This document shows, one piece after another, positions 345 through 52,539 of a DNA stretch of 64,000 nucleotides. The stretch lies in contig QPGO01000010.1 in assembly GCA_008632985.1 (NCBI GenBank), positions 310,001 to 374,000 of the forward strand. Reading direction: 5' to 3'. Under the pieces are notes generated by a model. The model was not told the origin of the DNA. It saw nothing but the letters and a program-made list of their open reading frames with translations, and searched no databases. The stretch is from Psammoneis japonica (taxonomy: Eukaryota). A program made the translations under genes and the position numbers. Positions within the stretch are counted from its first letter, which is position 1, and the number at the start of each line of letters is the position of its first letter.

Positions 345-2299
345 CGCTTCGTTGCCGACATGCCGGTACGGTACATGCATGCTTCATGAAAAAAAAAAAA
401 ACAAGAAACAGCCATTCAGTGCAAGTGAAGCGTGCAATTGCATTGATGTTGACGTGTGTGTGTGTGTGATTTATTTCTGTTGTTGCAGTGAAAAGTGTGC
501 AAAATGCTGCTGTGAGTTGAGCATCGTCCCACGCTCGACTCATCAAAGCTCTGCCTGGCAAGGAGGTGTGGAGAGTGGAGGCACACACAGGCAGAAAGCA
601 GAAGCTGATCCAGATTCAATCACAAACAAGAAAATCACAAGCGCAAAAAGCATCAATGCACCACAGGACAATTGATGCTTGTCCAACAAAAAGCGGAGAA
701 GACCCAAATGTGTGGGAGCGAGGCAGCTCGCTGTGAGCAGCCCCCCCCCCCCCCCCCCCCCTTGGAAACATCACTTGCACAAGATGGTGCGTTGAACGAC
801 ATGCGCAATTTGCAGCAGATTGTGCCCCATTGTTGGCAAAACATCAGGTGCTCTTTGGCCCTTGTTGTGACAAAGCATGGGCTGCAGAGATGCCAGCAAG
901 AACATCCTGCTGTTGCTGAGAGCAGGCACACTGGCATGACTGCATGTCAGCTGCAAGTGAGCCTCGTGCATGTCAAAAACATCAAGCACTCAACTGCCCC
1001 CCAAATCATGCCCAGTGAGCAAACACTTTTGCTGCACAACATTGTGCGCTGTGAATGCAGCACCTGCACAAAGCTCTCTTTGTTTGTGAATGAAAATTCC
1101 TGGCGTGTGCACCCGAAGTGAGCCCACACAACTCATGTGACAAAACACTGTGCAGCAAAGTGTGAGCAGCAAAATCTTGGTCTCAGCCTCTGCCTTTGCC
1201 ATTTTTTGCAACCAAAGCTTCTGCTCAGCTTTGTGTGCCCCTGGGCATTTGGCTTTTTAAGACACACTGCCTTGCACAGCACCAATGGAGCAGCAATGGC
1301 AACTGGGCCTCTGCAATCAAACTTGCAGGCATGATGGAATCTGGCAAACAAATGAGCCATGCAGCTGTCTGCCTGAGAGCCACTGCCCTGCAAAATGCAC
1401 TCATGCACTGACAGCACTCCAAGCCAGCACCACCCAAAATGTTGCTTCTCTTAGAAACATTGCAGCAAGTGCAATTTGCACAAAATTGTCATTTTTTGTT
1501 CTCAACAACAGCTGCAAGTTGTGCATCAAAAGAGCAAAACACACAATGATGAAAGTGGGGCTCCTTTCTTTACAAAGTGAGGGGCAAGTGACACACTTTT
1601 TGAAGAGAAGAAGCACAAAAGCATGATGGCTGCCTGGCTGATGAATCATGTGCTTCTCTGTTTCTTTCATGTTCCCAACAAGCAGCTGCAACAAGGTTGT
1701 TGATGAAAACCAAACAGAGATGGGGGTGGACATGGCCCCAGCCAGGGCACCATGTTTCAAGCTGTGTGGTGGGCAGGGAAGGTGGGAAAAAGGGAAGAAC
1801 TTGGGGGCAACATTTCAAAAAAGGGGGGAAGTCATGTTTCATCTGGTGCAAGATGAAGGTCTTGGTTCCTTGGCACAAGCATGCTGGAGCATTGCACCAT
1901 TGAAATGCTGGCTGATGCAACATGCTCTTGCACTTGTTGCAGCAGGAGCACCCCCACTCCCTGGTGCATCCCAACAAAGGTTTTCCACATTTTTTCTGGG
2001 CTCATCCCATGCACACTCATTCATTTTCTTCTGCAGCGCCCTTTGGGTCAAGGGATCTAGAGCCATTGCCAGCTGGGTGGCTCTGATTTTGGGGCAACAC
2101 AAGACACAAACAAGAAGTTGCGGGTTGGCATTTTCCCTTGCCACAAGAAGTGCAAATTAATTGAAAGGCACACAGATCTTCTGTCCATCTGTCCTTTTGA
2201 CAAACATGATCTCGATCAATGCAAACCCCAAACAGCTGATCAGTCTCTGTTGGATCCTTCAAAAGGCCCAATGTTGCTGTTGTGACTCACCCATTTGGG

Positions 2300-2950
2300 T
2301 GATGATGTGACATTGGTTGCACCACAGGCTCAAAACTGAAGAAATTGAGCATCACACACAAAGTTGATGCTGCCACATTTGCCAAAAATGAAACAACTGA
2401 CAACAATGTGCGGTCTTGCTTTCCCATCACAATGTTGTTGTCCAAGTCCACTCTGAAAGCTGCCTTCACCATCTGGGCTCTGCTGGAAGCTTTGCCCAGA
2501 TTGCTCAGGCAAAGCAATGCAATTGCAGCCAGCTCTTTTTGACAGATCACAATCAGCTGCCATTTGTGACATGAACATGCCAAATGGATTCTCCAAGCCA
2601 AAGCACCTTGACCTGAAACATGGCATCCACCCCACCACATGCTCTCCCAGCCTGGCAAAGGTGCGCTCAACTGCTGGAAGTGCTGCTTCATTGCTTGTTG
2701 CAGTGCTGCAATCACTGTTGGAGCTTTTGGCAGATCCACTGCACTGAGGATGGCCAAACAACAGAGACTTGTCAGAGTGACACCAGAGCTCTTGAAACAA
2801 CACCAGATGCTTCCAAAGGACAAAGGACACAAATGGAAATGCCATGAATTTCCCACACTTGCTGCAAGACAAAGGCAACCTTGCCAACCATGTGGTGCTT
2901 GCAACATCACTCAATTGATCCAGCTTGAGACCACCCCAGGGCTCCTGGTG
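2300..2950 (-). mobile_element. Possible highly decayed reverse-transcriptase remnant (Gypsy/DIRS-like)
   Basis: Across frames the fragments AVDLPKA, RCFGLENPFGMF and RVDLDNNIVMG occur in the order expected for the RT motifs DLxxAY, MPFGLxNAPxxF and YLDDIIV. Weak similarity, judged by eye only. Confidence 0.3.
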
Positions 2951-4238
2951 CCTTTTGTGTTGACAATGCTCTGTCATTGTTGGCTGTTCAACAATGACAG
3001 AGTTTGATTTGTTTGTTTCAATCCATTCCAGTTGCACAAGGAAACCAACAAAAGGGGAAAAAAGGGATTCTGGATGTTCGACAATGTTGCACTTTGGGGA
3101 TTCAGAGGGTGCGCAACATGCTGCTTGATTGCAAGTGCAACCAAATGCAAAAGAAGCAAGCATTGGGCAGTTTCTGTGCACATGAGACTCTTGAATTGTG
3201 CTCATGCAGGTGTCGGGATTCTGGCTCCTCATGTGTGGATCCATTTCAAGTCAACCACAATGCAAAATGGAGTTCAAGCACTTTCATTCTCTGCCTCCAC
3301 AACTGCAAACATGGAGGTGCAATGACACTGCCAGAAGAGCTGTCTGGGAGAGAGAAAGTTCCAGCCAAGTGGCGCCACATTGTGGCTGGCTGCTGCTTTC
3401 CCCCCATTTTTGTCCACACCTGGGAGATGAGGTTCAGAGCATTCCAAAGCTTCTCCTGCAAGGCACAGTGTTGCCGCAGCATGAGTTCCAGCAACTTGTT
3501 TCCAGCCTTCAAAGGAAGTGTCTGGCATTTGTGCCATGACTGACAGAAACAAAAATGAGGCTTGAATTGACCAATGCTTGAATTGGTTCCTAAAATGAGG
3601 TGAGGTCAGCTTGCTGCTCTCCAGATGTCAGCATTGCAGCTTTTCCTTGTTGGTTCACAAATCCGTTGCTGACATTTGCTCGTGCCCTGTTGAGCGGCAA
3701 TTGTTTTTTTTGTTCTTGAAACAAATGCCTGCAATGGTTGGCTTTGCCTCGACGATCAGCGAGGGGGGCAAGGGAATTGTTCAACAACTGTCAAGTGAAC
3801 AACGAGCTCATGAAAACAGGGGACACACTTGAACACTTGTCAATGAGTTTGCAAACTTTGTCATTGCTGCTGGTTCAATCAAACACTCAACAAAAATGCA
3901 CCCATGTCATCTGTTCCCTTGTTGAGGCTGGTGGGTGCCACTCAAAAACATGATTTGTCACCTTGTCTTTTGACAAACCCACGCAACAAGTCGCACCACT
4001 CAGAACAGCATCTGAAAGCAGATGGACAGTTTGTGGTTGCTGCTCTCCAGATGCAATCCAAAAAAGCCACGTGATGAACAAAAAAGTGAAAAGTGCCCAG
4101 AGTTGCAGGAAGTTGTTTTGAGCCAACAGAGCATGCAGTTGATGCACTCAGAAAGAAGTCAATGACTCCAAGATCAGCTCTTCTCCCAGACTTGCAAAAT
4201 CAGCACAGTGGAAGCCAAGGATTGTCAGCGCAAATCCA

Positions 4239-4460
4239 TTTTCTTGCATGAGAGGTGTTCTCAAAACCAGCAGCTCTCCAATCTAAAACAAAGAGTTCAG
4301 TGCAAGCAATGCCTGCAATCTCAATTGGGCTGCAAAAAACTCTGACACTGGCTTCTCAATCTGCTCAGGGGCATCAGCCAGAAGATGCAAATCTGATCAA
4401 CTTTGTCATGGATCACATTCTTCAAACAAAAGTCTTGACAGTGCAGCTCCGAGTGACTCT
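4239..4460 (+). repeat. TpA/CpG-mutated copy of a sequence also present unmutated at about 42562-42750
   Basis: Shared blocks: ttttcttgca(TG/TA)agagg(TG/TA)tt, cag(CA/TA)gctctYcaatctaaaacaa, and aagatgcaaatctgatcaactttgtcat. Confidence 0.85.
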
Positions 4461-6266
4461 GGGGCCCTGGCAAACTGCGCACATTGTTTTTTGGGAAAAC
4501 AGGCGTTGTGCAGCTGATGCAGTCATGCAAGTGAGAGGCAGTTGTCGTGTGCAAGTTTCTCCATCTGAGTGCACAAAATTCAAACAGATCATGGCACCAC
4601 AATCAGCAGTGTGTTGGCAGGGTTTGTTGTTGTCTCATCAGCTTGATTTTGACAGTCTCTGCAGGTGGCAGGTTGGCACGCTGTCAGGATGAGTGGGGTC
4701 CCACCAAATTGGGGTCCCTCAATGTCTGCAGAGGGACAGACCTGCACCATCCTCCCACTTGGGTTGTCCGGAGCTGATCTGGGATGAGGGAATGTGGGAA
4801 TGTGGTCCCCCCTGAGGCAACAATGGGTTGTCCAAACCACTGTGATGCTCATTCTCATGTTGACACAGCTGCATGCTTCCAAATGTGGTTTTTGTCACTT
4901 GTCTGACAGTTTTGACACCATCTTGCAAAGCATTGCCTTGGCTTCTTTGCCAAGTGGTCTGTTGCATGACACAATGAAGGGAGCAAAATGATGTCATTGC
5001 TCAAGACAGGGCTTGAGGTGCTCGTGCTTTTTCTCACATTTGTGGTCTGCTGGGACCTGGAGTTGCTTGGAATTCCCAAGATGCAACCAGAAGGGTTGAC
5101 AAGAGGTTTGTTGCATGCACGGCTACAGGAAGGTTTGCAAGCCTTGCCAGTTGGGTCACCCAGGTTGTCATGCCCTTCATCATGTCATGAGACAACTCTG
5201 GGCCTCCCTTCTTGCACTGAAGGGTGTGCTTGTTTGACAGCTCTGGCCTTGAGGTTGGGCAGACTGGTCCAGAGGATCGTTTCAAGGGTCTCACAGCATG
5301 CTTTGACTTTTTGTTTGGCTGTTTCTTGTTTTGCTTTGCACACGGTGTGCTTGTGGACTGCAGAAGAGAGCTGGGGGTGGCCACAGAGTGAGTTGATCAA
5401 GCGGGTGCATGTGAGAGTGCCCACTTTGCAGTCATGAGCTGCAAACTCTGTTGGATGAGGGATGGACAATCCAAAAAATTGATTTGGAGGGCAGATGGGG
5501 CCAGTCTTGGGTTGCAGTCAGCCAAGGTCTCATGGATTGGCACTGGCAGAAAGTTGTGCTGCACCATGTGCTCTGCTTCTGCAAACAATTCGCTGCAGTC
5601 CTTGACTGCATGCTGAGTGCACTGCCACTTGGGTGTTGCAGAGACTTCTGCAGACTGGCACAGGCAGTCTGAGGGTGGTGAACCACAATCTTGGCAAGTC
5701 CTTGGATGACCGATGTCCATGACTTGGCTTTTTCCATCAGCCAATGGTTGCATGCATTCGTCTCACCAACAAAGCCTCTGAGGCAGAAACTGCCAGAGAC
5801 TTGACAGTGAAGCCAAGGTCTCCAAAGTGTGCTCCAGCATTTTCCAGGTTGCACTCTGGGACTGCCAGGATGTTCTTGGAGTTGTCAGCAGGGCAGCATC
5901 CATGCTTGGGCCCTGGGCTTGGAGAGTCAAGAAAAAACCTGCAGGATGTTAAATTTTCGCACTGCTGCAGAGTCATCAGCAGCGTGCTGAGGGTTGAATG
6001 TGTCATTGAAGCATTTGTTCAACTCCCAGTCCAGTGGAAGAAGTCCCACCAGCCCATGTGCTGCCACACCAAGCAGGTCACCCTGCATGATGCCTTCTTT
6101 GCTGAACAAAATGAAGGCAATTCTGATGTTCCCGCAGATGAGCAAGATGCTCCAGTGCTCACAGCTGTTGAAGGTGAACCTTCTTGTTGCACTGCATGGT
6201 CAAAGGTGTCTGGTGTTGCATGATGCTGAGATCCTGTTCTCTTCATTCAACCCACTGGAGGTGACA

Positions 6267-6743
6267 TGCAATGTGCAGCTGCCAATGAGAGCCAACGCAT
6301 CACGGCGATGTGTTGCAGCCTTGAAATTCACAAAGGGCGTGACAAAAACAACCTTTTGTCTGCATGCATGCTGCACTGTGAATTCACAGCGGAGTGGTTC
6401 ATCGCAACCATCAGGCAGGAGGCCAGGGGTTCGAAACCCTGAGTGGGAGTTGTCTGCAGCAACGTTGATCACTGTCGAACGCGCAAAACTCTGTGCAGTT
6501 CTGTGTGTTTCTTCGTGCGCACCCACACTGTTCCGCCAAAACCGTTCAGTGTCAGCACACATTGGCAAAGAGCCGCATGGATGCGTGACACATGGGGAGG
6601 AGTGCAACACACAGCTGCTGACAAGAGTCAATGCATCACGGCGACGTGTTGCAGCCTTTGAATGTGTCACAGCGACGTGTTGCAGCCTTCAAATGTCACA
6701 AAGGGCGTGACAAAAACAACCTTTTGTCCGCATGCACACTGCA
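6267..6743 (+). mobile_element. TRIM-like miniature LTR retroelement (477 bp) inserted in the CRE-type RT
   Basis: Direct repeats 6267-6375 and 6603-6743 (the second has an internal duplication of about 31 bp), each bounded by TG...CA. Purine tract GGGGAGGAG at 6594-6602 abuts the second repeat. 4-bp TSD GACA at 6263-6266 and 6744-6747. Removing the insert restores the RT frame (LFVVTSSGLNEEN). Confidence 0.8.
6387..6438 (+). promoter_or_regulatory. tRNA-type RNA polymerase III internal promoter (A-box and B-box) inside the TRIM
   Basis: CAGCGGAGTGG (6387-6397) matches the A-box TRGCNNAGYGG apart from T>C in a TpA. GGTTCGAAACC (6428-6438) matches the B-box and lies within a CAGGG/CCCTG stem. 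Spacing is tRNA-like. Confidence 0.55.
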
Positions 6744-8354
6744 GACAACAAAAAGAGACCCCCCGCAGTCATTTTTGAATTTGTGTTGCTGCCAGAGCAT
6801 GCTCATTGCATGGACAGCACCTTCCATGCCAGTGCATGACTGGTCTGTCCCACAAGCTTCTTTGGCCTCTGCTCCTGCAACTGGGAGAATGGCTTTGGTG
6901 GTGGCTTGTTGCCATGCCCCCCCCCCCCCCCCCCCCCCCGACTGGGCACGCACTCAGATTTTTGTCCAGTGCAATGAGCTGCTTTGCCATGATTGCACGG
7001 CAGGCAGCCCACAGGGGTGACTCATTTGCCAGCCAATTTGTGAATGCACGCAACACTTCTCTGAGCAATCTGCTGGCCTTTCCATGATGGAGAAGCCACT
7101 CTGATGCTGTGTCAGCATCAGATCTGCCAAGTTCTGTGCTCCCAGATGGTCTTCGCATGAGATGGTCTTGACAGCACCATCTCGGTGGCAAGGATGTCTT
7201 GAAGTTCCGGTGGCTCACCAAACTTGTGAAAATGGTTTTCATCCAGAATTCTCAGGTTTGGATGTTTCTGCTGAAGTGCCTCAAACGCTGTGTCATTGGT
7301 TTTTTCATTGATGTCATCCAGTGCAAGAATTTCACCTTTTTTGCATTCAGAAATGCAGCCAGCCACTCCTCTTGGGTTCCTTTGAGCGCCATTCTGTTGA
7401 ATGGCTTGGCAAGCTGCTCAGGTGTCTCTTCTCTTTAAATGGTCTTCAGGTTTGCTTCAAGTTGCTGCTCTGGTGACTGGACCAGCATTTTGTGCTCACT
7501 TGCACCCCAATTGTCCATGCACATGCTGAGCAAAGTTTCAATGTCCTTGGCTCCTTCTGCACTGCAATCCTGCTGCAAAACAGCCATTTGGTGCACTGCA
7601 AACCTTTCCAAGTTCCACTTCCACATTGTGATTCCATGCAGCAGCTCTGCCAATGTTGCAATGAATCATTTTCCAACTGAGCCCTTTGGTGCATCACATC
7701 ATTGCATGGGTGGGGCGCTGGCCGGCACCAGTGCTCTTGCCATGCGTTGTCATTCAACATTCCACCACCCAGCTCAATGCCATCACTGCGATGATGTGTC
7801 TTGCCATGTGTCTCATGTGTGGTGTGCTCTGCTTCTGAATTGAAGTTGTTGGGTGTGGCGTTGGTGTTGTCAATTGACAGAACAACAGCCCCTTCCAAGA
7901 AGCCTTCTCTGTCCTCCAACTGTGCACTCCCCCCTGTGGCAGCATCAACCTCCTCACCATCTTTGCCCTCGCCAATGTCTGTCTCTTGATTGTTGGGTGC
8001 AATGTTCTCTTTGTTGGCTTTGGTGTCAGCCTTGTCTTTGTCTTGTTTGTCAGTGGCACCAGGGGTGTCATTGACAAATTGACAAATTTTTGGTTGAAGT
8101 GGACTGGATTCTGGGGAGGTCAGAAGTTTCTGCAGCTTCTTGTCCAAATTTCTCTCTGTCATGCTTGAGCCACAAGTTGGGAGTCCTTCCTTGTTCATGC
8201 ATTTGCAGAAGCAAACACAGGAGGCACATGGTTGATCATGTTTGCAGCATGATGAACAGCTGTGTGTTTGGCAGGTTGATCCCAAGGTGCCATTGCAGCA
8301 CGTCTTCCCACCAAATCTCTTTGCTTGTTCTTCCTCATTGGTGTGAAGGGCAAG

Positions 8355-8700
8355 TGTTTGAGTCTCCACTCTTGAAGCCACCTCCTGTGCCCTTCACACA
8401 CTCCCACCTTTGAAGAACATGCTTCTTGAGATTGTGCCCATCCTTGATGTCTCTCAAGACCTGCAGACCTCTGTTGGTGCCCACGTGTTTGAGGACAACC
8501 AAGGGGCTCACCATCTGGCTGCCAACCACTGCATCACAAATCACACCAAGAATTTTCTTGTCAAGTGGCATTGGCTCTGGTCTCACTGTGACAAGTTTGA
8601 CATGTTCAAGGTGGAATCAGCTGATCAACTCACTGATTTTCTGACAAAGCCTTTGACCAGAGAACTCTCCGAGAACAACAGATTGAAGGTTTGGGGTTGG
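8355..8700 (+). mobile_element. Ty1/copia RNase H fragment (decayed)
   Basis: VFEDNQGAHHLAANHCITNHTKNFLVKWHWLW...VESADQLTDFLTKPL...GW matches the copia RNase H C-terminus (EDNxxA, RTKH, QLADxxTKPL). A purine tract GAGACAGAGAGGG lies downstream at about 8842-8854. Confidence 0.75.
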
Positions 8701-9507
8701 CAGATTTGTGCTGGAGTGGCATTCCCTCATTTGTCACATGTTGTGGCTTGGTCAAAGTGCAGGAGCTTTGCTCTGAACTTGTGCCAATTGTGCAAGCTTT
8801 CTTGTTTGCAGCTTCTTTGTTGGTTGCTGGAATCTGTGAATGAGACAGAGAGGGTCGTGGGTCATCTGTCCACGGCCCAAATTCCCGTGTGTCTGTTCTT
8901 CCATCAACGGAATTCTCGTTGAAATTCTTTTCATGCCACGTCAACACAGAAACTCAAGTCCATTGCTTTGAGGATCACAGGCATTTCATGGATGTTGGGC
9001 CAACCACAGATTGGTTCAGCAGCACTTGGATGATTGTTGAGAATGTGGTCAGCCCCGAAACTTGCACTGGTCTCTGGCACAAGTGTGCGGGTGACCACTG
9101 AAGTTGTGCACTCCGCAGATTCAGTTTTGTGCAGCTTCCAATCTGGTCACCAGTGGTTTTGTGAAAGACTTTTGACTGGACTCTTGTCACCACTTCTCAG
9201 TGGGTGCTGTCCACTTGTGCTCTGTCTGAGGCATTGGCTTGCCGCGTTCTTCACACTGGCAATTGGTGAATTTCATGCTTAAAGTGCAGTTGGCTGTGCT
9301 GCACATCATGAAAAAGACAAGCATCAAAGGCTTCACCAAACAAATGGTGCTGTTGCAAACTCTCAATTGTGCATGCAACGCCTTTTGGTGATGGCATTTC
9401 CATGATCTAAAGTGGCTGTTTGCTGGTGACCACTTCTGCTGTTGGTTTTTTCTGAACTGCAATGCATGACCAACCAAAAGGTGACACTGCTGTGTTCCTG
9501 CTGCCAG

Positions 9508-10557
9508 TCACATCACCGCCACCAGTGCAACATTTTGCCACATTTGTTTGTGTGATGAAAATGTTGTTGTTGCACTGCAAAGGGTTCTGACACACCCATT
9601 TGTTTGAAGCAGCCAATTCAGAGAGCCTGTTTTCTTCATCCTTCTTGACCCGTTTGGCCCCTTTCCTTCTTTTCTTCTTTGTTGCACGTCTCTCTCTCTC
9701 TCTCTCCCATTTTGCTTTGTCCATTCTTGTTGTTCATTTGAGGGTTCTTGTCTCTTGAATGCATCTGAAGCTGTGTCATCCTCCCCCATTGGACTTGCTT
9801 CCACTTGCGCTGCAATCTTGTTGGCATCTGGAGAAGTGCCTTCCTTCTCTTTTTGACCTGCTGCCACTGTTGGATCCACTTTCCTTGCAATCTTGAACAT
9901 GCTGTGTGTTGCATTCTGTTGATGGAATGACATCCAAAAGACATCCTGTTTTGCACCTTCATCCCAGCAATTCAGCAACTCCCAATCCCTTTCATCAAGC
10001 TTGACACAGTGAAGACAAGGCTGAGTGTCCATCAGGATGCCATTCTCTGCAAAACATGCCACTGCATGTTTGACTTTGACACCATCTTTGTCCAAAAAAT
10101 CCATGATTGCAAGACACATTCCATCTTCTTTCAGAAGCAAAGCCAGTTTACTTTGGTGTTCGTGGGGGCCAAGCCTTTGCACAAAAAATCCTTCACTCTC
10201 AAAAAACCAAGTGAAGTTCTTGGGCAACACCCGTTTGCATCTCAGAGCCAATTTGTTTTGGATCACCATTTTAGAAATGTGCAGTTTCTCTCTCTCCTTT
10301 TTGTTGGGGGAGCCATGCATTTGAGAACATGAATGCAGTGTCCAGAGTGCAACATCCCACCGGCACGTGAAGTTTGTTGCAGCAAAATCCATCTTCTTTA
10401 GCCTCGGCTGGGGACAAAATTCTGGCACCCACAACTGCATTGTTTCTTTGTTCCCATGTTCCTTTCTCAACTGTTTGGCAGTTTTGTTGACAGGACAATG
10501 AGCAACCAGCTCAGTCCCTGGTGGCAAAATCAGATGGACCCCCCAAGCGCACGCCAC
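9508..10557 (-). pseudogene. Remnant of a coding sequence of unknown function inside TE block A
   Basis: 349-codon open frame with globular-looking segments (TNFTCRWDVALW; KHAVACFAENGILMDTQP) and a charged tail. It has no Tyr. ORF length is weak evidence here because TAA/TAG stops are depleted. Confidence 0.35.
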
Positions 10558-10976
10558 TCAAGTTGCCAATTGCAGCTGCTTTGGCATCCGCAGTTGCAGC
10601 ATGTGACACTCCTTTGATGGCAGAGCAGCCCACAATGCAAGCTCCGTGGTCGCCCACTGTCATGGAGCTCGGGGGTGCATTGACTTCTTCTTCCTCTTTT
10701 TCTTCATCAGAGTCACAAAGAAGCTGCTGCCACCCATTGTTGCCAGAAGATTCATTGTCCATGTTTGTGTTCTGAAACTGAGATGAAACTGATTTGAAGC
10801 AGATTGTGTCAACAACAACCATGATCATGCAAGAAAACAACAAAGAGAGTCATTCTCTCACACCTGTGGCTCAATTGCGTTTTCTTGCGGGACTTTCTCC
10901 ATGCAAGGAGGCCATTTCATTGGATTTGTTTGCAGCTTGCAACAATCCAGAGGCAACACTGCACACTTGTGTCACT

Positions 10977-12166
10977 GAGTCGACAGTGTTGTCAGATTGC
11001 TTGCAGCCAGAACTGCCATCCTCTTGTTCCACAGTTTTGTCTGACACAGTGCATGGAGGAAAGATGGTGACAGCATTGAAGCATCCAAATGATGATGAGC
11101 CAAAACATTTTGGTCCACAAGGCTTTGTCCAGTTTCGGTGGACTCCACCAGAGCAGAGCCTGACCTTCTCCAAGAGGGAATGTCAGTTTCAGGACTTCGA
11201 TGGCATTGGTGGCCGGCACTCCTTCTGGCAAAAGAACATTTGATTGACAACAAAATGAAATCAATGAGAGTGAGTTTTGCGTCAAGACAAAATTTGAAAA
11301 TGCAAGATGCGAGTGATCCAACCCATTGACTCGCCTGGAACATTGGAGGCAGCATCTCCAAACAAACCGCTCTCTTCAGGAGTTTCACTTGCAGCTGACA
11401 TTGAACGTTCACTGGCTGCCAAGGTGTTTTCATTGGTGACAGGTTTTGTTTTTGCGGAAGGATTGCCCAAGGCAATTCAAGGTGAAGCGTGGCCAACTGC
11501 AGAGTCGTTCGTGGTCCCAGCAACAGCTCCCATTTCCTGTGGCAGTTCTGCTTCCCCGGTCTTGTCATCGGGCTTGTCCAAGGCAATGACAGGCAAAGTT
11601 GTCCCAACTGCAGAGTGACCATGGCTTGGACAGTGCTCTCCTTCTCCTTGCATGCAAGAGCACTCAAGAAGCCGTTGCCATCTGCAGAGTCGACAGCATT
11701 GTCGGAAGGCTTGCACCAACCGGAGCTGCCATCTTCTTGTTCCACTGTTTTGTGTGACAGTGCATGGAGGAAAGACCACGACAGTGGCGAAGCATCCAAA
11801 TGATGACAAGTTGAAACATTTTGGTCTGCAAGGCTTTGTCCAGTTTTGGCAGACTCCACTGGAGCAGAACCTTCACCAAGAGGGACAGACTCTTGGGCTT
11901 TCTTGGGATCGATGGCATTGGTGGTGACCGACACTCCTTCTGGTGAAAGGACAGCTGATTTTTAAAAAATGAAATCAATGAGAACAAGTTTTGTGTCAAT
12001 GACAAACAAAATGCAAACAAATCAAGCCAACAACTTGCTTGGAACATTTGCGACAGCATTCACTGACAAGCCACTTTTTCCGGAAGTCATGTTTGCAGCT
12101 AACATGGAACATGTGATGGCGGCCAAGGTGTTTTCATTGGCGGCAGACTTCGTTTTTGTGGAAGGA
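10977..12166. repeat. Direct duplication of about 480 bp (10977-11463 and 11687-12166)
   Basis: Both copies start gagtcgacag and share gtgcatggaggaaaga, gaagcatccaaatgatga, caaggctttgtccagttt, aaaatgaaatcaatgaga and gccaaggtgttttcattgg. Confidence 0.85.
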
Positions 12167-15100
12167 CCACTCGGTTTGGAGCTGGATGTGTCAAGGCCAG
12201 CACACCCTGTTGCAGCAGTGCGTGTTTTAGCAAGTGATGTGCTGTTTGCTTTGCCGCGGCTGGCAGACCTGACTCCTCTGTTGGGCGGTGCTTTGAGCAC
12301 AATGCAGCTGGCTTTGTTCGGCTCTGCCTCTTGGTTTTCCTTTTTGCTTGTCTTGCAATCAATCAGGTGGGATCAAGTGGCCAATGCATTTTCTTCTTTG
12401 ATGGGGTGGCTCCAGAGGAAAATGTCTTCATCCAAGTTGAATGATTGCTGGAGCAAGCGCGGTGGAGGATTTGATGATTCGCGCCATTGACAAGGACTGG
12501 ACGGCCTCCGTTGCCCACTTCTTCTTGAATCCAGCTTGGCTGGTCACACGCTGCCTCACAACAGCAGGCGCATCCAACACAGTGGCACTCCAAGCTTTTG
12601 TGCTAGATGCCAATCCGTTTGCATCTGCAGCTTGCTTTGCACGATTCCGTTGCATTGCCCAAAGTTGGCTTGTGAGCAGATGTTGGTTTCATGTCATTGA
12701 CAAAATGATGCCAGGCAGAAGGTGCCTTTGCATTTCTAAATTAAAAGCAAGAGATGAAGTCAAAGAAAAGAGACTGGTGAATGGTCGTGACAGTGCCAGC
12801 AACAAAAGTGAAGAGCAAGTTGCTTGCCTTGCTTTCGTTTTTGCATTTCACTGGTGGGCCCTTGAAATGGAGCACAGTCATTGCAAACTCAAGTTGTGGT
12901 CAGAGCTCTGGCATCTTCTTCTGACAATCCAATTGTCCTTCTAACCCACAAGGGCAGTGGAAGTGTCTCTTCACCAAACTCAGGCCCCAATCTGCTTTCA
13001 ACATTCGTCCATGTTAGAAATTCTTTGCATTGAATGGATTTAGGGTGGAGCGGCTTTGAAGATCGTTTTGAGTCTGTTGAGTGCTGCTTCGGGGCTTTCG
13101 CTTCATCAGATAATTTCCGTCACTTAGACCACTTCCAATCATTGTCTCGTTTTCCTCTCCTCCTTTTAGACATGTGCAAAGCAAGAGTTTGTCTCTCCCA
13201 GAGAGGATTTGCTGATGGCAAGTCTTCATCCAATGACAATGGTGCCGTGAATTTTACCATGTTCAATCCAAACCATCCCCATCAGTTTCACAAGAGGTTG
13301 AGAAGAAAACAAAGCTTGCACATGAGAGGGAGACTTGATGAAGAGCAGTGCAAATGAACACAACAGTGATGCAAAGCAATTCTTGCCTGTTTTGCCAAGA
13401 AGGATGGCCAACGGCAACGTTTCAAACTGAAAACAGGGTGTTTTGACAAAGAGCTTCTCGCAATGTTGTCACAAGCTGCAAAGCAACGAACAAGATGTGA
13501 GATGAGGGACAATGATGCAAGACACAAAGACAACAAGAAGGGGAGGTGAAAGAGCAACACTCACCAACTGCATGCAAGTCAACAATGAGCAACAACAACG
13601 AACGTTTTTATGAGTTTGATTGTGCACTTTGAACTTGTGGGCTTGTGACGGGTTGTGATGGGCTGGGTCGTGGCTCCTTGCATGCACAAGTGCACAAAAT
13701 GTTTGGAGTTGGCCAACAAACCTTGTGGTGCTGCATTTGTCGCACCTGCCTTGCCGGCACATCTTTTTCTCTTTTTTCTCTTTTTGCTTTTCCCTTCTCT
13801 CGCCCCCCTCCAACAAACTCCCAAAATCTGGAAGACCACTCTGACATTTGAGGCAGCGCTTGTGTGTCAGCAACCATTCATTTCAGCGACAATCTTGGTG
13901 GCTGGCAACTTGTTGCTGCTGTTTGCTGCAGCCTCAGCACACGACCGTGCTGCTTGTTGTCAGAGACAGACACCAGAGAAACAGGCTGTGGGTGTGAGTG
14001 CAAAGTCTGTGCTCCCCCCCTTGAAGACTTTTCAGCATGTCAGCTTTCACTTTGTCAAGAATGGCAGTTTGCTGCTGACAAAACCACTGCAAAAGTGTTG
14101 CTTCTCCTTTCCCTTTTTGGTCTACAATGCACTCCATGGAAAACAACCAATGATGATGATGTGAAGTGTCTTTTTGTCACAATGAAGGAATCCTTCAATG
14201 ATGACCATGAAATGTGTCCACACTTGCAGAATCCACAGCACGACTGCTGCATGTTTTTGTGCAAAAAAAAACTGTTTTTGTCTTCTTGCTGTTTGTGTGC
14301 AAAAATGGACTCCAGCGGACTGTCGTCTGACCAGGCACACTGCTGCAAATGTGTTGGTCTAAAATGTGCCTGATCAGATGACAGTCAAGCCCATTTCTCA
14401 CCCAAAACAAAATTCACAGCAGTGAAAGAAAGACAGAAATGGCTTGGTGTTTGTTTCTCAGCACTGGACCATGCATGTTCTGTGCAATGGGTCAGCAGCA
14501 TGAAAGATTGTGCCGCTGAGTCTGAAGATCCTGGCACGCAGATCAACTCATCTTTTGGCACAGGTCTGCAAGGTCCAAGCTCTGAACACCATGAAGAACA
14601 AAGACATCATTTTGCAACTCAATTGCTTGCTGTCACACAAGCTCTCCAAGCTCCTTGCTGCCAGTGTTGCTGGGGCCAAATGAGCTTTGTGCCTTTGTTT
14701 GGTCTCACAGGAACTTGGTTTTTGTTGACAGCAACCCCGCTCCTCTGCTCACTGACAACTCTTTGGCTGTCAAAAGGATCAACACCATCAGCCCCCTGCT
14801 GATGGCTGCACTGCATTTATGCTCGCCACTTTGCTGTGCACCAAGGCTGGCATGAGAGACTGGAAAAAGTTGAAAGTTCTTGCACTCATGACACCATGTT
14901 CTCTTTTGCCCCACAGCGCAGCTGCAGCTTGTTGACTGTGTGATGCAGCACATGGCCGTGCTGTGTGCTTTGTCATGAGACAGTGCGTGAAACCAAACAA
15001 TGCAACGGATTGGAGAGACGAACCATCGGACAACGGATTTGGAGCCAGCTCGTCAAGGAGCTCATTCCAAATCCATGCTGTGATGGTTTGTCACAGTTGT

Positions 15101-15943
15101 CCTTGCTTGTGTCTGCACGTTGCACAGAAGGAAACTGAATTTGCCATTTTTGGACACGCCCCCCCACTGACATTGTTGCCAAGGTGGTTCTCCGGGTGGG
15201 TGCTTCATGCTTGCCATGCTCTCGACAGTTGATGGGGTGCTGTGGCCAACTCTTTTGGTTGGTGCCCACTTTGGTTCTTTCACTTGTTGTTGGAGACCCT
15301 TGCAGACACCAATTTGTCCTTTGTCTGTCTTCCTCTTTCCTTTTCCTGTTGGGCATTTTTTTCCAAGAAACCAGGGCTCTGCCAGATTGCTCATCAGGGG
15401 AGTCGAGAGTGGCGGCTGTCTGGTTGTTGGGTGTTGTGTTGGGTGTGTTGGACACACACAACCAGATGGACAGACCCAGCACATGCAGACAGCACATGCC
15501 TCCCCTCACTTTTCCTTCATCACCAGCAGTGCCGCACTTGTTGTTGTCGATGCTGCTGTCCCAGCATTTTTTGTTGGGCTGCCCAGACATCTGGTCATGT
15601 CCTGGCACATCTCTGTTTTCCACTTAACTCTGCCACACTGCTGTCTGCTTTTCATCATCATCTTGCCAAAAGGTGGTCAGAGGCTTTTGGTGTCTTTTTG
15701 GGCAGCTCAGCACGTTTCTCTCATCAGCAAGGGGGGGGGCTGTTGTTGGCTCTGCGGTTTTGTGGCACACAAGCTGCCAGCTGCGAATGGTCTTTCTCTT
15801 TTCACCACTTCATTGGCTCACCACAGGAAAAAGCTGACAACATGGGGCAGATGATCACTCGCTTTTCACTTTTGCACAGAAATGCTGGTGTTGTGGACTG
15901 CATGCACTCACATTGACGGGAAGGCAGGCTCTGCAATTCGCCA

Positions 15944-15966
15944 GTCAAAAGGCGCTTGTGCTTCGA
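15944..15966 (+). repeat. 23-bp direct repeat, copy 2 (copy 1 at 322-344)
   Basis: gtcaaaaggcgcttgtgcttcga; it lies where TpA frequency returns to normal. Confidence 0.7.
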
Positions 15967-17634
15967 AATTTCAAAAGAACAGAATAAGAAGACAGCATCT
16001 TGCTACCGGTACAGTAGATAGAGAGAGTAGACTCTTAGCTTAGCAGCAGGTAGCTACCGTACGCAGATGATAAAAAGACAGCTGCACAGGCAACACAGTC
16101 ACAGGCTCAGATGTAGATTCGATAGAAAGGCACCCCTCTTCTCGAGAGGATGAAGCTCATACATCCTGTAGCACAGGGAGCAACAGGATATCCTCATTGA
16201 ACATCAATAAATTGCATAACTTGATCGAATGAGGCAAGTGATAAAGTCACTAAGAGAAAGCTATCTGCTAGTACAGTACAACCCGTTCACCCTCACAGCC
16301 ATTTTCGTCCCTGCAATTTAACTCTTTCCTATATTTCCATGCAATATGTATCGTAGTACCGCAATGACGTATCTGCCTTCCTGCTCATCCTTTAACGCGG
16401 CTTGGAACAAGCTTTCCTTCCGTTGTCATATCTAACTGAAACCAGCACTTGTACCTACGCAATTTTGCCGCATGCGCCTTCTACGTCAACTATTCAAACG
16501 TGCAAAACATGTAACCAGCGGTATGCCTCAAAAGGACAAACTAATGCTTTCCCTGCTTCTGCTTGAGCCATTCCTCGTGGTCGATGCCGAGTCCTTCCTC
16601 GAGATTCTCCATGCGCCTAGGAATGCGACTCGTGACCCTCTTTACGAGGGTGTCTTGAGGTTCTTTCCCCCACGTCTGAATGAGCATATTTCTTTTGCGT
16701 GGATCAACCTGACACCAAGAAGAAGATTAAGTAACAAAAGACTACAGTTAGTCTTCATCGATACAGTTTATTTGAAGCGATGCTCTCCATCAATGCTAGG
16801 TGATGAACAACTGCAAGTCATAGCACAGTAGAGGAACTCACCTGCACATCCTTGTAAGTTGTCACGGCATGAAGTCCCATACCACACATGAACGTCAAGC
16901 TGAAACATGAACGGAGAGAGAGAGAGTTGGAACCGATGAGGACGCCCATTCACGGAAGATGACGACAACCAAGTTCGTCACAAAACCTACCCTGCACCGA
17001 GGATTGCAATCAACGGGTACACTGATGGATCTTGCAGAAAACCTGAAAAAGCAAACAATGAGAATGTCGTTTCGTGCGCAGGAAAGCATTTAGTTCAGAA
17101 CAAGGGATAACAGAAGCGTCATGAAGAGAGAAGCCTGATGGAAGATCAAAATATGACCAACCATGAAGATCCGCCGCCGTTCTTACCTTCTCGAAAGGTA
17201 TTCGCGCTATCCATACGAAGCCCAAACGGATGTTTTGGCCCTATCCGATCTGCTGCTTTGGTGGCGAATCGACGTCCGACAACGCGGTTTCGGAGGAGGG
17301 TAGATGTCAACATGGCGGGGACGAGCTGAAAAGATATTTTGTGACACCTTTCTCACATCACAGAAGAGCGATGTCAAAAGTTCAAGGCGCGGGAACAAAG
17401 ATACGAATTTGGCTACGCAAGTTACGTGTAAGTAGGAAGACGTAGAAATGTACTGAGCCTGTTGGAGGGAAGTTTTGGACGTAAAGATGCAATGAAAACC
17501 CAAAAGCAAGTTTCTTCTGAGCTCACGCGCCGGGATGTGACGGACGAAACAGTACGCAAGACTGTACAAAGTACAAAGCGAAGAAGAGAGCGAGCACAGA
17601 GAGAGTACAACCAACAACGGATGCGGCCGCAACT

Positions 17635-42083: not shown

Positions 42084-42089
42084 TCATTG

Positions 42090-44965
42090 GAGCATCGTCC
42101 TAACACATGGCTCTTTCTTCTTGATCAATCCAAAATGACCCTGACCCTTTCGATATCCTCCAGAGCCAAGACACCCATGGTAACGCCTTGAGCCGCAGCA
42201 ATGATATGCGTCACTGTTACTGGTTCTCTCTCTTTTTTTTCTGGTCCGAGTTCTTCGTAATTTCGTGGATACCGAAACCGAAGTGAGTGCCGGAGTGCTA
42301 ATAGAATGGTGTGGCAAGTCGGTGACTTAGAGGAAGAAGGCTCTTGTAGGGGTGGACCTCAATAAAACCCCGACAAAAAGTCGGAAGGCAGAGAAACATG
42401 GACTCGCGCAGCCTTTCACGGGTGTTTTTGACGGTTACCGTGAAGTGTGTTTGCCAGGCTCGTCTTGCCTCATATTGGCTGCACTTTGCATTTTTCTCTG
42501 GATAATCATTGCTCAAAGCGACTTTGAATGTGACATGGCGAAGGTACGGTATGTTCCAATGTTTTCTTGCATAAGAGGTATTGCCACAATCAGTAGCTCT
42601 TCAATCTAAAACAACGAGTCCAGTGCGAGCAATGCCGGGAATCTCAATTGGACGATTGTCTTCTCAAGCAAAAAGATGCAAATCTGATCAACTTTGTCAT
42701 CTATCACCGGCTTCGAACGAAAATCTTGACGGTTTATCTCCAAGTTACTTTTGCAAAACGCGGCTCTCATGGTGTTTTTCAAAATCTCCATAGAGAAATC
42801 AAGTCGAGTCGTCCCGTCATGCTGAATGCGGGATCATCTCCGTATTTCCGCGTACACATGAAAGCCGCACCGTCCACGGCTCGCTTGACAATTCATACGG
42901 ACTGGTACAGCAACAGATAATTCCAACACGTCCTCCACAGGTTGTTGTTGCAGCGCCAGATCCAGTATGGTTTTTGTCATCGTTGCTGTACCGTCACCGG
43001 TAGTAAACTTCCCATTTCGTGGAGGGACGTACAAGACAAGGCAAACAATAGTGGAGCCTGCTGATCCACGAAAATGTCACTGTCACGCTCCAAGAAGGGA
43101 TAGGTAAACGGAGTCCTTGACGTAGGATACGGGTGGCTGTGAAAGAGCAGATTATGGAAAAAGGTGGACATGGTGGCAGGCAAGAGCGGAACACTCTCCT
43201 CGACCCACTCGCCAAATACTGACTGTCCCTTACGATTCCAAATCCAACAACTCTCCCGTCAGCTCCTCCACCACTTTTCCATCGACGGTGCTTCCCAATA
43301 AAGCCTCTTGATAAGAGGCCCCAGCGCGTGTCGGTCGGAATCGATTCTTGCAGAAAACAATCCAATCCTTCACGAGTTCTCTACTGAAATCCGGCGTCAC
43401 CAAGACATGCGACGCTACAGCAAAACGAGAACACAGATTGACCAAGATTTGATCAAAAGAACCATCCAGTATGGCATTTTCCCTTTTCAAGTCTAATGAC
43501 TTGACGATTCATGTAGCTTAGTCCCTCAATACTCTCGCGGCATGAAAGACAATCATGCCGTCAAATTCACATGTGTGAGCCTTGAAATAGATTGACCAGC
43601 ATCTAACGACACTGCTCATCCTTGTACGAATTGAGTACACGCTTGACAAAGGGATGACTCATCTTTTGCATACACCCCCTTTACTTGTTTGAATTGCAAT
43701 ATCATGCTTGTATTGGACCTTGAGGACATTTGCCGTTTTGCCCACTCGTTGGCTATTATTATTTGGCGTGGAACCTTTCATCATTGCATAGTTGACCAGT
43801 AATTTTAACAGCTGGGTTGTCACTCCCACAAACTAGTCACATTTGTCCAAAGGTATCAGCTCCGAGTAGTTTGAGCATTTCAAAGGAATCGAGTTGAATG
43901 GAGTATTCCGGTTTGGTGGGTGCCTCGTCCACAATGACCCTTTCAATGTCCTCAAGAATCAAGACACCCGTGATAACGTCTTGAGCCGCAGCAATGTTAT
44001 GCGTCGCTGTTGTTCTCCTTTTTTCATAATTTCTGGCACGAGTTCTTCGTTCTTCGTGTCTAAACATGGTGTTTGGTCCGAAAATCTTGGTCGTTATTCC
44101 ACCTAAATTCGTGGATGCCAAAACTGTTCCCGAAATGGCAATGTAGATCGTTGCCAAGTGGACGCAAAAGCAAAAGCACTTTTTTCTCCATGTACTCTGG
44201 AAAACAAGTAACAACAGACCGCGATATCCCTCCTGCTCACAGCTCCAACTTGTCATAAGCTCAGTCATTTTTTTCTGAGCGTACGCTTTTGTTAAACTTG
44301 GCAAGGACCTTTGTTTGTGGGCGAATCCTTCTTGCGAAACAAAGATCGGATCTTGTGCCATCTTCATAAACCGACAAGTGCTCTTTTGCGAAGAAGTCCC
44401 GGCCTCTACAAAAATTTTGTGTTCCGACACATTTTCTCGATACGAGACAGCCACACGAGCCTCGAGATCCTTCAAACCTGCAGCCACTCCATATGAGAGT
44501 TGGTCTAGTACTACTTTGGGCAGCATAACCTGCGACTGGCTGCTTGAAATCATGTTGTATAGGTCTCAAACACCATTTGTTGGTAGGCGGGTCATCTATT
44601 TTCCTTTGCGAGTGTCTATCTGGTTGAATCTTCCATTGATTTTGTTGACATACGGTCTTCCTATGGACAAGTATTCAGACTCCATTCGGTCTCCCAAATC
44701 CACGTACAGTGACAGAGAGGAAAACGGCTCTTGTAGGGGTGAACCGCAATAAAAGGCCAGTGAATTCGGGAAGACAGCGAAACATGGCGAATGGATGGAA
44801 TTGGAATATGTTTGACTCGTGCAGCCTTCAACGAGTGATTTTGACGGTTACCGTGAAGCTTGATGTATACTTGCGGAATCGTCTTGCCTCGTGTTGGCTG
44901 TTTCTCGCTCTGGATAATCACTGCTCAAAGCGACTTTCAATCTGCCATGGCGCTACAGTACGGTA
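42090..44965 (-). repeat. Two decayed paralogous segments: 42090-42550 is an internally deleted copy of about 43930-44965
   Basis: Shared: ttgagccgcagcaatg, ggctcttgtaggggtg, ttttgacggttaccgtgaag and ctctggataatcaYtgctcaaagcgactt. The longer copy holds ORF 43837-44553 of unknown family. Confidence 0.7.
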
Positions 44966-45207
44966 GGTTTTGCGTGACACGGCGGCGGCGGCGGCGGCAG
45001 TTTTTGCGTTTTGGACGGCTACCGTAAAGCGTACGTAGGAATTAGTAATAATTTAGAAAGTACCAAGTTCCTACGAATTTCTACATACGAAATCATGGTA
45101 TTAATTCTACAAGAATACACAATAATGATAGTGATTGAAAAATTTAGCAACGGTCATGACTCAACCAAAGTCTCTCCAAGCTTTTTCTTTCGCGCTGTTT
45201 TCGATCA

Positions 45208-45493
45208 CAACTCGTCGTTTGCGGCACGATGTGTTTGTTGTTCGCCAAGCCGGAATGCAGCGATACCCAAGGATGGCTCGCCCTTCCTCTGGTTCTAATT
45301 GCTTTCTCTTGTTTGGTGTTCCACAACATGTTTTGCTTGCGCGAAGTGTTGTCTCTCTTTTCAACTCGTCGTCTCGCACGATGTGTTGTTGTTTGCCAAG
45401 CCGGAATGCCGCAATCGCCAAAGGATGGCTCGCCCTTCCTCTGGATTGAGACCTTGCATTTGTTTGGCATTCCACAACTCATTTTGCTTGATG
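45208..45493. repeat. Diverged tandem duplication, period about 154 bp
   Basis: caactcgtcgt...gccaagccggaatgc...aaggatggctcgcccttcctctgg...ttccacaac occurs at 45208 and 45362. Confidence 0.8.
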
Positions 45494-48400
45494 GCGTGTT
45501 GTCTCAAATGGTAGCGTAGGTGTTGCCAGTTAAGTCCAGAGGTCGGGGCAAATCGAATGCGTCTCTCCGGCCTTGAGTCCATGTCACTCTCGTGTCTTTG
45601 AGCGTAGGAAGTTGCCTGTTCGCTTGACCCAGTCAGGTCACGGCTGTTGAAACAGACAGCAGCGTTCATCTGCGAAGCAGCAAAAGCTCGCCGAGCAGAT
45701 CATACCATTGACGGAACACAGGTTTGGGGTTCTGTCGCATCAGTGACATGATGCGGTAAGTCTTTACTCGTAGGGAGTGTTGATTTAGAACGCGGTCGAC
45801 TCGCAAGTTTTCTTGTTGTCTCCGTAGTACGTCCCCCCTTTTTCTTTTCTTGGGGTGATATTTTCACTCTGAAGATACGAAAAAGCTTGAGCGCCATCTT
45901 TTGATGGCGCTCTTGAGGCAACGTTACCCTACGCGACCGATTTCAATAGATGCTTTTGATATTGGCGTGTTTCAAATATTTGAAACACGCTTTGAAACTA
46001 TTCCAATAGATGTAGAAAGACTAAAAGTACAAGATAGCAATCTATATTTGCGTGTAAGTTATTCCGTACGTACGTCAATGGACTACGATGACGGTCGTAG
46101 CGCTTGCAATGTTGTTGCATACTTTGATGCCGTTGTTTCTGTTTATGTAGCTACCACATCGCTCTCTTTCTTTTAGATGTCATCTCTTCAGCATCCTTCA
46201 TTTCTTTGGGTCCACGCTGGGCTATTCGTTACCGCATGTCCCAAGGCTTGTCGTTGATACCTGTTATAAGCTGGTTATGCTGCCGCTGATCGCCTGCACA
46301 TTATACAGATATTATGGATTCATCGTACCCTAACCTACAACGATACAAGATATAATGCAAATGTCCAAAGGTGCTTTGAGGTGCTGACTATTCAAAAGAT
46401 TAACCCAAGAGGCTCTGGGATAAGGTTGTTACATACCTGGAACTGAGGATAGGGCTACTCTTCCCCCCTTTCCCCATCCTTGTAATGAGCGTTCGCATCG
46501 TTACTAGTTTTCGGCTAATGTCGGATGGATTCCAATTGTCAAAGTCTGTCTTTGGTCGCTCCCACCTTGACAGCTGCTACAACACCTTGCATTACTTCTA
46601 TGGCTGAATCTTTTGCCAAATGAAATCCGACCACCTTGACAGTCGCTGTCTGAAAGATGATTTTTAAAATGGTGTACGTTTCTGACTTTGGACAGGAGTT
46701 CAGAGTGCATCATTGGTCAAAATTTACTCTTGTAGATTGCTACGTCTTTGAACTTCTCCACCGCGTTCTCTTCTGTATACCCGACAGTTGCAAGCTTTGG
46801 ATTCGTGAACACTGTAGATGCAACAACAGGTCGATGTTACCTCCGAAAAGTGCATCGGCAAGTCGATGATCCTCCATCGAGGCGACAGGCGTGCAAACCA
46901 TTTTCTAGGATGAATGATCATGACTGAAACCGTACAAAGTTGTGAGGTGATTCCGTACTGAGGATACGTGTAGAAGCCATCCAAAGTCAAAGTGATCTGA
47001 CGAAGCCTCCAGCGAAGGTCGTTCAAAACTCAACGACTACCAACCCATGGTGCACCGGTACGTGTAGTGGCCTGCCCATGACAACCCATCACAAACCCTT
47101 TCCCTCTTTTTCTTCATCGCCATTCGATTCTGGTAGCCAGCCCACAACATCTTCCTTAGTTCTCCCTTACTGGAGTGCTATTCCTGACGTCTGCATGCTT
47201 TAAGTACGTGTCTTCGCCTATCGAGTCAGCGATGCAAGGAACCGTCACTCACACCCTTCAAGACACCCATCGGCATGATTCACTCTTTGGGATGGAGCTA
47301 GACTCTTTATTTTATACTTGAGTCATGTCTTGTTATTGCTTTAATCTGAGATTGGATTGATGTGCAGCTTGTCATATTTCTCTACTAGAAATGGATAATA
47401 AGATAGTGAGTAGTCCAAAGAATCAAGACCAAGTAGAGAAGCCAGGGGCGTCAATGCGAACAGACAATAAAGGCATGAAGTATGAACTCACGTGGCTATT
47501 CCTGACAATGGCAGAATCCGAGGACACTGGGGACACGTTGATATCAACGGGGTGTACCTGTAGCTGAGCAAGGTCCACTATACATTCCTTTATCCTGGGC
47601 GGTACTACACGAATGTTCTGATGGAACAGTTGATAGTCCCAGGTTGGCCTCCACGACTCCTCGAATCTACCCGTCTTCATCTTCCGCCGCACCACTCACT
47701 CCTACAGCTCAAAGGATTTACCACCCAACTTTAAAAGAAATTCACCGGGAAAAGGCGCCATGTTACTAGCAGATACTGCAGCCAATGTAGTTATATGACA
47801 AAACTTTGCAGACGCCTCGTAGGCTGCATACCAATATCGAAAGGCTCGAAACGGATACTTGTTGACAATGCACGACAACGTCTTGGCCATGGCAAAATGA
47901 AGCAGTCCAACTGGACTGCGTCCCTCTCTTTGATACGAGCGATGAACCAGAAGCATCCATCGCGATTAATGCGACAGGATTGAAACCATTTCGCTTGCAG
48001 CAGGAAATTACAATGTTGGCAATCGAGTCGGCCTGACTGAAACATAAAAAGGGCCCGTACTGAATGTCCGTGTAGCTGGGAGCCTTGGACGATGTTATCG
48101 TCAAGGAGATAATGGGACTTGTCGTCATTGAAAGGTTTTCTAAGTAGCTCGACAAGGTGAGACGAGAGTGACGATTCGTTAGTGAGCGTACAGTGAGTTG
48201 CAAGAAGCCCAAGCGCCGCAGCAGGAGCACTTATGAAACTCGTAATTCTCATTCTTTTGTCAACGTATGGTACCAAATGACTATTCCTTCAGTGTGGATG
48301 CTGTGGAATGTTCTCGGTGAACCTTGTTGAATGCGAGCTGCGTTAGAGGATAAGTTGCAGACTTCTCTGCGTAGAGGAATGGCCAGTTTGAAGCGAAACG

Positions 48401-52538: not shown

Positions 52539-52539
52539 C

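Follow-up and report, generated by a model that had tools for sequence, protein, structure and literature searches.

Position-dependent erosion of TA dinucleotides in transposon and duplicated host DNA of the diatom Psammoneis japonica

In the genome of the diatom Psammoneis japonica, TA dinucleotides are converted to TG or CA in a position-dependent manner: the same sequence has lost nearly all of them at one location and keeps most of them at another. The window analyzed here is a stretch of 64,000 nucleotides (assembly GCA_008632985.1, contig QPGO01000010.1, positions 310,001 to 374,000), and coordinates without a prefix refer to it. Its profile contains sharply bounded blocks in which TA and CG both collapse and TG and CA rise; TA o/e is 0.00-0.10 per kb over 1-16 kb, against 0.45-0.84 in gene-rich DNA. 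The first of these, TA- and CG-poor block A (500..16000), retains 34 TA in 700-16000. Further eroded blocks lie at 26000-28000 and 59200-61300. The shared sequence is a clean natural control, and it documents a variant of a process barely known before, from Bigelowiella natans.

The initial annotation had paired 4239-4460, inside block A, with 42562-42750, outside it. Self-BLAST recovers the match (4239-4458 against 42562-42749, E 2e-28; 70.5% identity over 220 columns, 82% at ungapped columns), and the differences it listed are present in the sequence: three TA sites of the outside copy read TG, TG and CA inside, four CG sites all read CA, and a TCTAAAA motif is kept in both. These seven changes are real, but the list had omitted the sites of the same alignment that do not fit. 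Among all 7 TA of the outside copy, the inside copy (4239..4460) keeps 1, has TG or CA at 4 and GA at 2; among the 7 CG it keeps none, with CA at 4 and something else at 3. Its sole remaining TA, at 4284, is the one in TCTAAAA, a YTAR context. The 220-bp pair by itself offers few sites, and the statistics below come from a 1.8-kb extension of it.

A genome-wide search for further copies, proposed in the annotation as a check, found a third one (G000:C89:22150-22341). Each of the three listed TA sites is TA there too, and CG stands in gtgCGag and ttCGaa; its alignment ends short of the last two listed CG sites. Comparison with it shows three of the non-fitting outside sites to be private changes of the 42.6-kb copy. 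The inside copy is closer to C89 than the 42.6-kb copy (8 versus 3 informative columns other than TA and CG), and two segments absent from the 42.6-kb copy only are present in both the inside copy and C89. Since TA and CG are common to the two unchanged copies, and the inside copy is the nearer to C89, the TA/CG state is ancestral. The polarity that had been claimed without a protein consensus is thus supported, and the contrary outcome, further copies with TG/CA as the ancestral state, did not occur in the C89 copy.

The match to C89 runs over 2648-4423 and, collinearly, over pieces of 42.5-51.2 kb. On C89 it is low-copy DNA just past a fragmented RabGAP-TBC gene, and the shared segment is host-derived low-copy DNA. 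The block copy (2648..4423, common to C89:22152-23895, which is uneroded) keeps 1/72 TA over 1641 columns, 67 having become TG or CA, and 8/73 CG, 53 having become TG or CA. Changes from TG or CA to TA number 0/235, and we rejected the reverse polarity, a RIP-like gain of TA outside the block, on this count. The uneroded pieces in 42562..46295, collinear with C89:18.0-22.3 kb, give the 42.5-46.4 kb copy, which keeps 42/66 TA and 65/83 CG; the difference in retention from the block copy is significant for both dinucleotides (Fisher p 4e-17 for TA, 3e-18 for CG). A second part of the C89-collinear sequence (49832..51224) is eroded again, in a block beside a copia element, with 2/26 TA and 6/39 CG kept. 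The uneroded copies lie ~6-7 kb from the nearest large block. CG loss in 2648-4423 relative to C89 is context-biased (TCG 0.64; ACG, CCG and GCG 0.17-0.35).

Mutation might instead be uniform across the genome, the outside copies being intact as young or selected sequences. Some observations lean that way: kinase-gene copies discussed below have open frames, the C89 segment adjoins the TBC-domain gene fragment, and a contig of run X2 (41880-43058) crosses the TA/CG-intact outside copy (42562..42750) with 0 differences. Run X2 comes from the same sample; though its listing reads 'DNA?', it has contigs spliced at GT..AG introns and is apparently RNA. The spanning contig is a weak hint that the outside copy is transcribed. 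The X2 contigs give no cover over block A or 49.9-51.8 kb, which we do not count as evidence. Yet the two outside copies (42.6 kb and C89) differ by 9-19% substitutions plus indels in aligned pieces, with changes in both directions and with TA and CG kept; being well diverged from each other, they are not intact through youth. Selection, for its part, cannot explain 1/72 against 42/66, or the on/off patches within one transposon family described below. We regard uniform mutation as very unlikely.

Other same-sequence comparisons repeat the contrast. An eroded copy of a duplicated host region lies in block A (9242..14582, minus strand). Part of a protein-kinase-domain gene falls within the region (PF00069 in the C15 copy), and this eroded copy keeps 11/127 TA relative to C15 and 11/108 relative to C83, against 85/144 between C15 and C83, both uneroded. 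A multi-copy repeat (45362..46173) is uneroded both in the window and on C89 (26/31 TA shared) and eroded at four other loci (TA kept: C83 3/32, C108 0/31, C269 3/22, C353 0/20). An 836-bp repeat keeps 35/35 TA in three copies that are 99.6-99.9% identical, and a 95.7%-identical copy keeps 7/35 TA but 35/38 CG. Within ~1.33-kb tandem arrays on C151 (L134, L137; G000:C151:129470-132970), neighbors keep 30, 7 and 26 of 35 TA over 836 bp; this repeat also occurs in arrays on C134 and C89.

These copies bear on a pairing mechanism like that of RIP, in which repeats would be recognized by mutual homology and mutated, the mutations leaking into flanks. Every high-copy transposon family examined does include eroded copies, and TA loss fades over ~1 kb from an LTR (below), much as RIP leaks into flanks. 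Repetition is nevertheless insufficient for erosion, given the near-identical 836-bp copies that keep every TA and the unequal tandem neighbors on C151; the inside copy has a linked partner at 42.6 kb that is spared, the kinase duplicates on C15 and C83 are uneroded despite being multi-copy, and the target dinucleotide and the direction of change are unlike those of RIP. This explanation is accordingly unlikely.

The remainder of block A consists partly of repeats. The shared segment abuts a repeat-family relic (4511..8374), which we tentatively take from a motif to be a non-LTR retrotransposon. The relic has 7 other fetched copies, all nearly TA-free, with CG kept to varying degree; four frames of a better-preserved copy gave no Pfam match. 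Within it lies a high-copy insert of ~480 bp (6267..6743) that has lost TA and largely kept CG. This element has short internal direct repeats, and its summed depth in the public read run X1 is 46,900, against ~55 for single-copy DNA. Pfam searches of 35 window ORFs found no family inside block A. A search with 300-2650 gave 39 short matches outside the window, of which 38 hit a ~115-bp repeat (~574-688), and among the 40 of 90 candidates scored it found no source for the left part of the block.

The relative timing of the losses can be read from a Ty1/copia-type LTR retrotransposon in the window (52263..59196, minus strand; RVT_2; LTRs 52263-52538 and 58921-59196; TGCGG on both sides). We compared this copy with 15 others (16 scored of 772 candidates) for both the clock and the context model; the rates are approximate, since the copies have ancestry in common and a site was counted as TA if at least 3 copies have TA there. 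Among them 983/2362 TA states have changed (0.21 per A), against 47/10235 for AA to AG and 51/15481 for GA to GG (0.003-0.005). C-to-T change at CG amounts to 304/16059 (0.019), against 12/14270 at CC. TA loss is thus ~10x faster than CG loss and ~50x faster than A-to-G change in AA or GA, and other changes at TA are few (23/2385, ~1%). TA is lost first and CG later, and the very different rates make it likely that two processes are at work.

The two LTRs of one element are identical at insertion. Over the 4402 columns of 16 LTR pairs, both members retain TA at 72 sites and one of them has changed at 87, and TG stands opposite CA at 41; CG is kept at 310 sites and changed at 21, and every other substitution together amounts to 16. 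LTRs that were identical now differ at TA, so the changes arose in chromosomal DNA after insertion. We rejected A-to-I editing of transposon RNA followed by reverse transcription on these data. The process is centered on retroelements, as such editing would have it; the LTR pairs with their 41 TG-opposite-CA sites refute it, and there is no strand bias and DNA other than retroelements is also hit. Together with a sequencing or assembly artefact, considered below, it is the least credible of the explanations weighed here.

The same counts speak to error-prone repair, in which patches made by a polymerase-eta-like enzyme and begun at methyl-CpG mismatches would produce A-to-G changes. Polymerase eta favors WA motifs, and TA and CG are lost in the same old blocks. 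But change from AA to AG stays at background, changes at TA other than the transition stay at ~1%, TA is lost where CG is untouched, and strand coordination is weak. We rejected polymerase-eta patches on the AA and transversion counts, and hold such repair to be highly improbable.

Erosion is also switched on and off within the copia family. In a 725-bp patch just inside the 5' LTR (58000..58725), 14-29 of 34 TA are changed in 8 of the 16 copies and 4-8 of 34 in the other 8. At 25 of the 33 multiply hit sites both TG and CA occur among the copies, so the changes are independent. The patch may be a record of promoter state.

A local sequence code modulates the loss. In a competing-rate model, the base following the A changes the rate 3.2x for C (2.3-5.5), 2.3x for T (1.5-4.6) and 1.05x for G, each relative to a following A; CA is not a comparable target of A-to-G change here. 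Both strands are hit equally (strand ratio 0.92, 0.76-1.13). Strand coordination at ≤20 bp is 0.579 against 0.524 (p 0.026), with p 0.11-0.18 at the other three distances (50-300 bp); a processive single-strand deaminase would leave strand-coordinated runs, and such runs are at most weak here. A preference for a following C or T without strand bias makes YTAR slow on both strands. In old blocks retention is 0.33 at CTAA/TTAG and 0.38 at TTAA, and at most 0.075 in other contexts; YTAR accounts for 25 of the 34 TA surviving in block A, against 215/1289 in normal DNA. The slowness of YTAR on both strands accounts for the TCTAAAA kept in both copies of the shared segment.

The flanks of copia elements suggest where erosion starts. 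Copies L036, which has the fewest TA (50), and L043 are eroded though their flanks are largely normal. An element thus needs no old block around it, and a transposon can likely seed its own domain. Spreading could be followed at one testable locus, where an LTR lies adjacent on C424 and no such LTR is present in the fetched stretch of its partner on C21. Relative to C21, C424 has lost 17/18 TA within 500 bp of the LTR, 7/9 to 800 bp, 4/14 to 1.3 kb, 4/26 to 2 kb and 6/63 beyond, and 6/141 CG overall; TA loss here fades over ~1 kb from the LTR. A few hundred bases beyond, the C21 partner has an old eroded block of its own, and the flank of that block is intact. Some LTR flanks, such as the one upstream of L043 and that of L113, show no loss. 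A second spreading locus was tried at the C342 flank, but that flank is itself another repeat, of 820 bp. In a pooled gradient, the first 400 bp contain 6.1 TA against 15.3 expected and 14.1 CG against 21.5; only 10 of 50 flanks entered it, 40 having failed the filter 'normal at 1.0-1.4 kb', and the pool is confounded by insertion into older relics, so we do not take it as proof of spreading.

The annotation had further suggested that targeting depends on chromosomal domain rather than on the sequence itself. Its first half is supported as regards position, since position dependence now extends to several more same-sequence pairs, and we infer from position that chromosomal domain may be the determinant. 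Its second half needs amendment: flanking bases matter, and transposons are eroded amid normal DNA.

Read contigs from X1, possibly the run from which the assembly was built, reproduce both copies of the shared segment (2847-4405 with 4 differences, 42313-43058 with 0), as well as block A, TA-free, at single-copy depth. In seven block contigs X1 and the assembly disagree at 40 of 10,341 bases, and in six normal contigs at 4 of 7,275. Many of the listed differences (35 inspected in context) are CG-to-TG/CA or TG-versus-CA swaps, which fits extra polymorphism in the blocks. Double swaps of CA and TG between the assembly and X1 occur in old blocks at 50354, 50809, 51181, 1844 and 6224; these may be alleles that went through a short-lived TA or CG. 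The many 1-bp indels between the assembly and X1 are what an artefact might leave, but X1, even as a possible source of the assembly, gives the TA-free sequence at single-copy depth, and we rejected an assembly artefact.

The reading we prefer, with confidence somewhat short of even, is that the block copy, lying among transposon relics, was converted because silenced chromatin spreads from transposons and guides a predicted TpA adenine deaminase. Repressive chromatin seeded on transposons would spread over neighboring DNA and would guide the predicted enzyme there. This would be a TadA/ADAT2-type deaminase that turns A to inosine, acting distributively over many cell divisions, with inosine copied as G. 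CG loss would be ordinary deamination of 5-methylcytosine in the same domains. Transposons would be wrecked as a result, and duplicated host DNA would be a bystander. The parts are not equally secure: deamination of 5-methylcytosine very probably underlies the CG loss, repressive chromatin seeded by transposons is quite probably the guide, and for distributive A-to-inosine deamination by a TadA/ADAT2-type enzyme as the cause of TA loss the chances are about even. A deaminase of this type is favored since clean transitions combined with a preference for TAC/TAT are reminiscent of the TadA family; the strict 5' T and the absence of strand runs do not fully match it. An evolved TadA-family editor is reported to favor CAT, CAC, TAC and TAT (bioRxiv 10.1101/2025.05.14.653640), and in Phaeodactylum tricornutum that has lost DNMT5a, CG methylation is reported to be depleted and young transposons to be released from repression (PMC9998398).

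Deaminase genes in the genome include an ADAT2-like, a TadA-like and two A_deamin genes, sub-family labels that we assign presumptively from motifs. These look like ordinary housekeeping types, whose presence is expected in any eukaryote and is no evidence. The two A_deamin (ADAT1/ADAR-type) genes are separate (L175 on C40, L177 on C79), and at L076 (G000:C79:87006-90176) a deaminase domain lies in one frame with a 2OG-Fe(II) oxygenase (DIOX_N) domain. In the frames inspected, genome searches for deaminases and methyltransferases yielded no stand-out candidate, such as a fusion to a chromatin reader. Two cytosine-methyltransferase gene copies, L086 (G000:C301:34166-37723) and L087 (C297:3633-7190), lie in TA-eroded DNA with CG largely kept, and a third, L095, has lost both TA and CG; possibly these are duplicated or element-borne methyltransferases that were recently silenced.

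The main rival, possible though improbable in our judgment, shares the position dependence and has TA change through a mark on the DNA: 6mA at TpA that is later deaminated, a T oxidized or alkylated so that it pairs with G, or something made off-pathway by a RID-related DNMT4. Change from TA to CA is the exact reverse of the CA-to-TA change of RIP, and PF00145 is matched 27 times in the genome. Changes with neither a strand bias nor long strand-coordinated runs are consistent with a mark on duplex DNA, and seen from the T strand, the preference for TAY is equally one for RTA. We know of no enzyme, though, that gives T-to-C change at TpA through a DNA mark, and the ranking TAC > TAT >> TAR resembles the preferences of the TadA family. 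Diatom DNMT4 enzymes may group with RID (PMC9998398).

To return to the deaminase we prefer, we may tentatively picture a natural genomic adenine base editor: a TadA/ADAT-family enzyme that would erase TA(C/T) on duplex DNA of newly silenced transposons and spread ~1 kb into host DNA, an anti-transposon mutator shared by stramenopiles and Rhizaria and an A-to-G mirror of fungal RIP. Relatives of the copia element in metagenome contigs have TA o/e of 0.60-0.94 at 36/37 loci (many redundant), so the erosion signature does not travel with the element. One relative, on a metagenome contig of 2759 bp (L141, 66% amino-acid identity), has TA o/e of 0.31; 44 of the 76 TA of L140 are TG or CA in L141, and 6/36 the reverse. 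L141 may come from a second organism with the process.

In the literature found, targeted A-to-G mutation of an organism's own genome is described in one alga, unrelated to diatoms; a search with few subscription papers within reach found no report of TA erosion in a diatom. With the same-sequence pairs, the effect of position can be told apart from those of repetition and age; the flanking-base code and the spreading distance are constraints on any candidate enzyme or chromatin model, and the question of target choice and enzyme becomes testable. Duplicated host genes landing near transposons would be disabled by the process, and repeat dating as well as analyses of codon usage and selection in this genome would be distorted. 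A natural duplex-DNA adenine deaminase, if true, would interest genome editors.

Several known systems invite comparison. RIP of ascomycetes acts through RID/DIM-2 and turns C to T at CpA, creating TA; it is triggered by homology, hits both partners, and depends on a RID-type methyltransferase and on the sexual cycle. Here, as in RIP, dinucleotide-specific transitions wreck repeats on both strands and spill over into neighboring DNA. Unlike in RIP, TA is destroyed, with no C-to-T change at CpA among the 235 TG/CA sites above, and near-identical copies are spared or hit by position rather than by homology; the linked 42.6-kb partner, too, is spared. Decay of methyl-CpG would account for the excess of CG to TG/CA in repeats (53/73 in the block copy; 304/16059 against 12/14270 at CC in copia), whereas TA loss, faster and preceding CG loss, is left unexplained by it. 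DNMT5-type CG methylation of diatom transposons, as described by Hoguin et al. (PMC9998398), would explain CG to TG/CA and is a plausible domain mark; the words 'deamination' and 'dinucleotide' do not occur in the main text of that paper. TadA-family adenine base editors (bioRxiv 10.1101/2025.05.14.653640) likewise make A-to-G changes in DNA and prefer a 3' pyrimidine (TAC, TAT), but they are engineered enzymes whose substrate is single-stranded DNA in an R-loop, and they take CA as well, whereas a 5' T is essentially required here.

The closest system is TpA hypermutation in Bigelowiella natans, where integrated NCLDV and virophage DNA is hit (Mettrop et al., bioRxiv 10.64898/2026.01.13.699255). 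According to the preprint, A-to-G change at TpA only was measured directly there, arising de novo at ~1000x background and active in some lines only; ADAT2 is proposed as the enzyme. In both organisms A-to-G/T-to-C change is confined to TpA, giving TG or CA, and bounded regions of foreign or repeat DNA are hit, with host duplicates in the blocks also hit here. The preprint text further describes one mutated region as transcriptionally silent, reports clusters of windows poor in TpA and rich in CpA plus TpG, and finds transposon domains enriched among TpA-poor genes. By the same text the differences are that (i) the host there is a chlorarachniophyte and here a diatom, a stramenopile; (ii) the targets here are transposons and duplicated host DNA, with no virus seen; (iii) depletion is deeper, with o/e near 0.02 against 0.45 for the B. 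natans NCLDV region; (iv) CG is also lost here; and (v) the rate was measured there and is deduced here, the LTR pairs giving relative amounts only. The words 'diatom', 'CpG', 'trinucleotide' and 'context' do not occur in the text of the preprint that was searched, and what P. japonica adds to it is the flanking-base code (TAY favored, YTAR spared), the same-sequence position controls and the LTR gradient.
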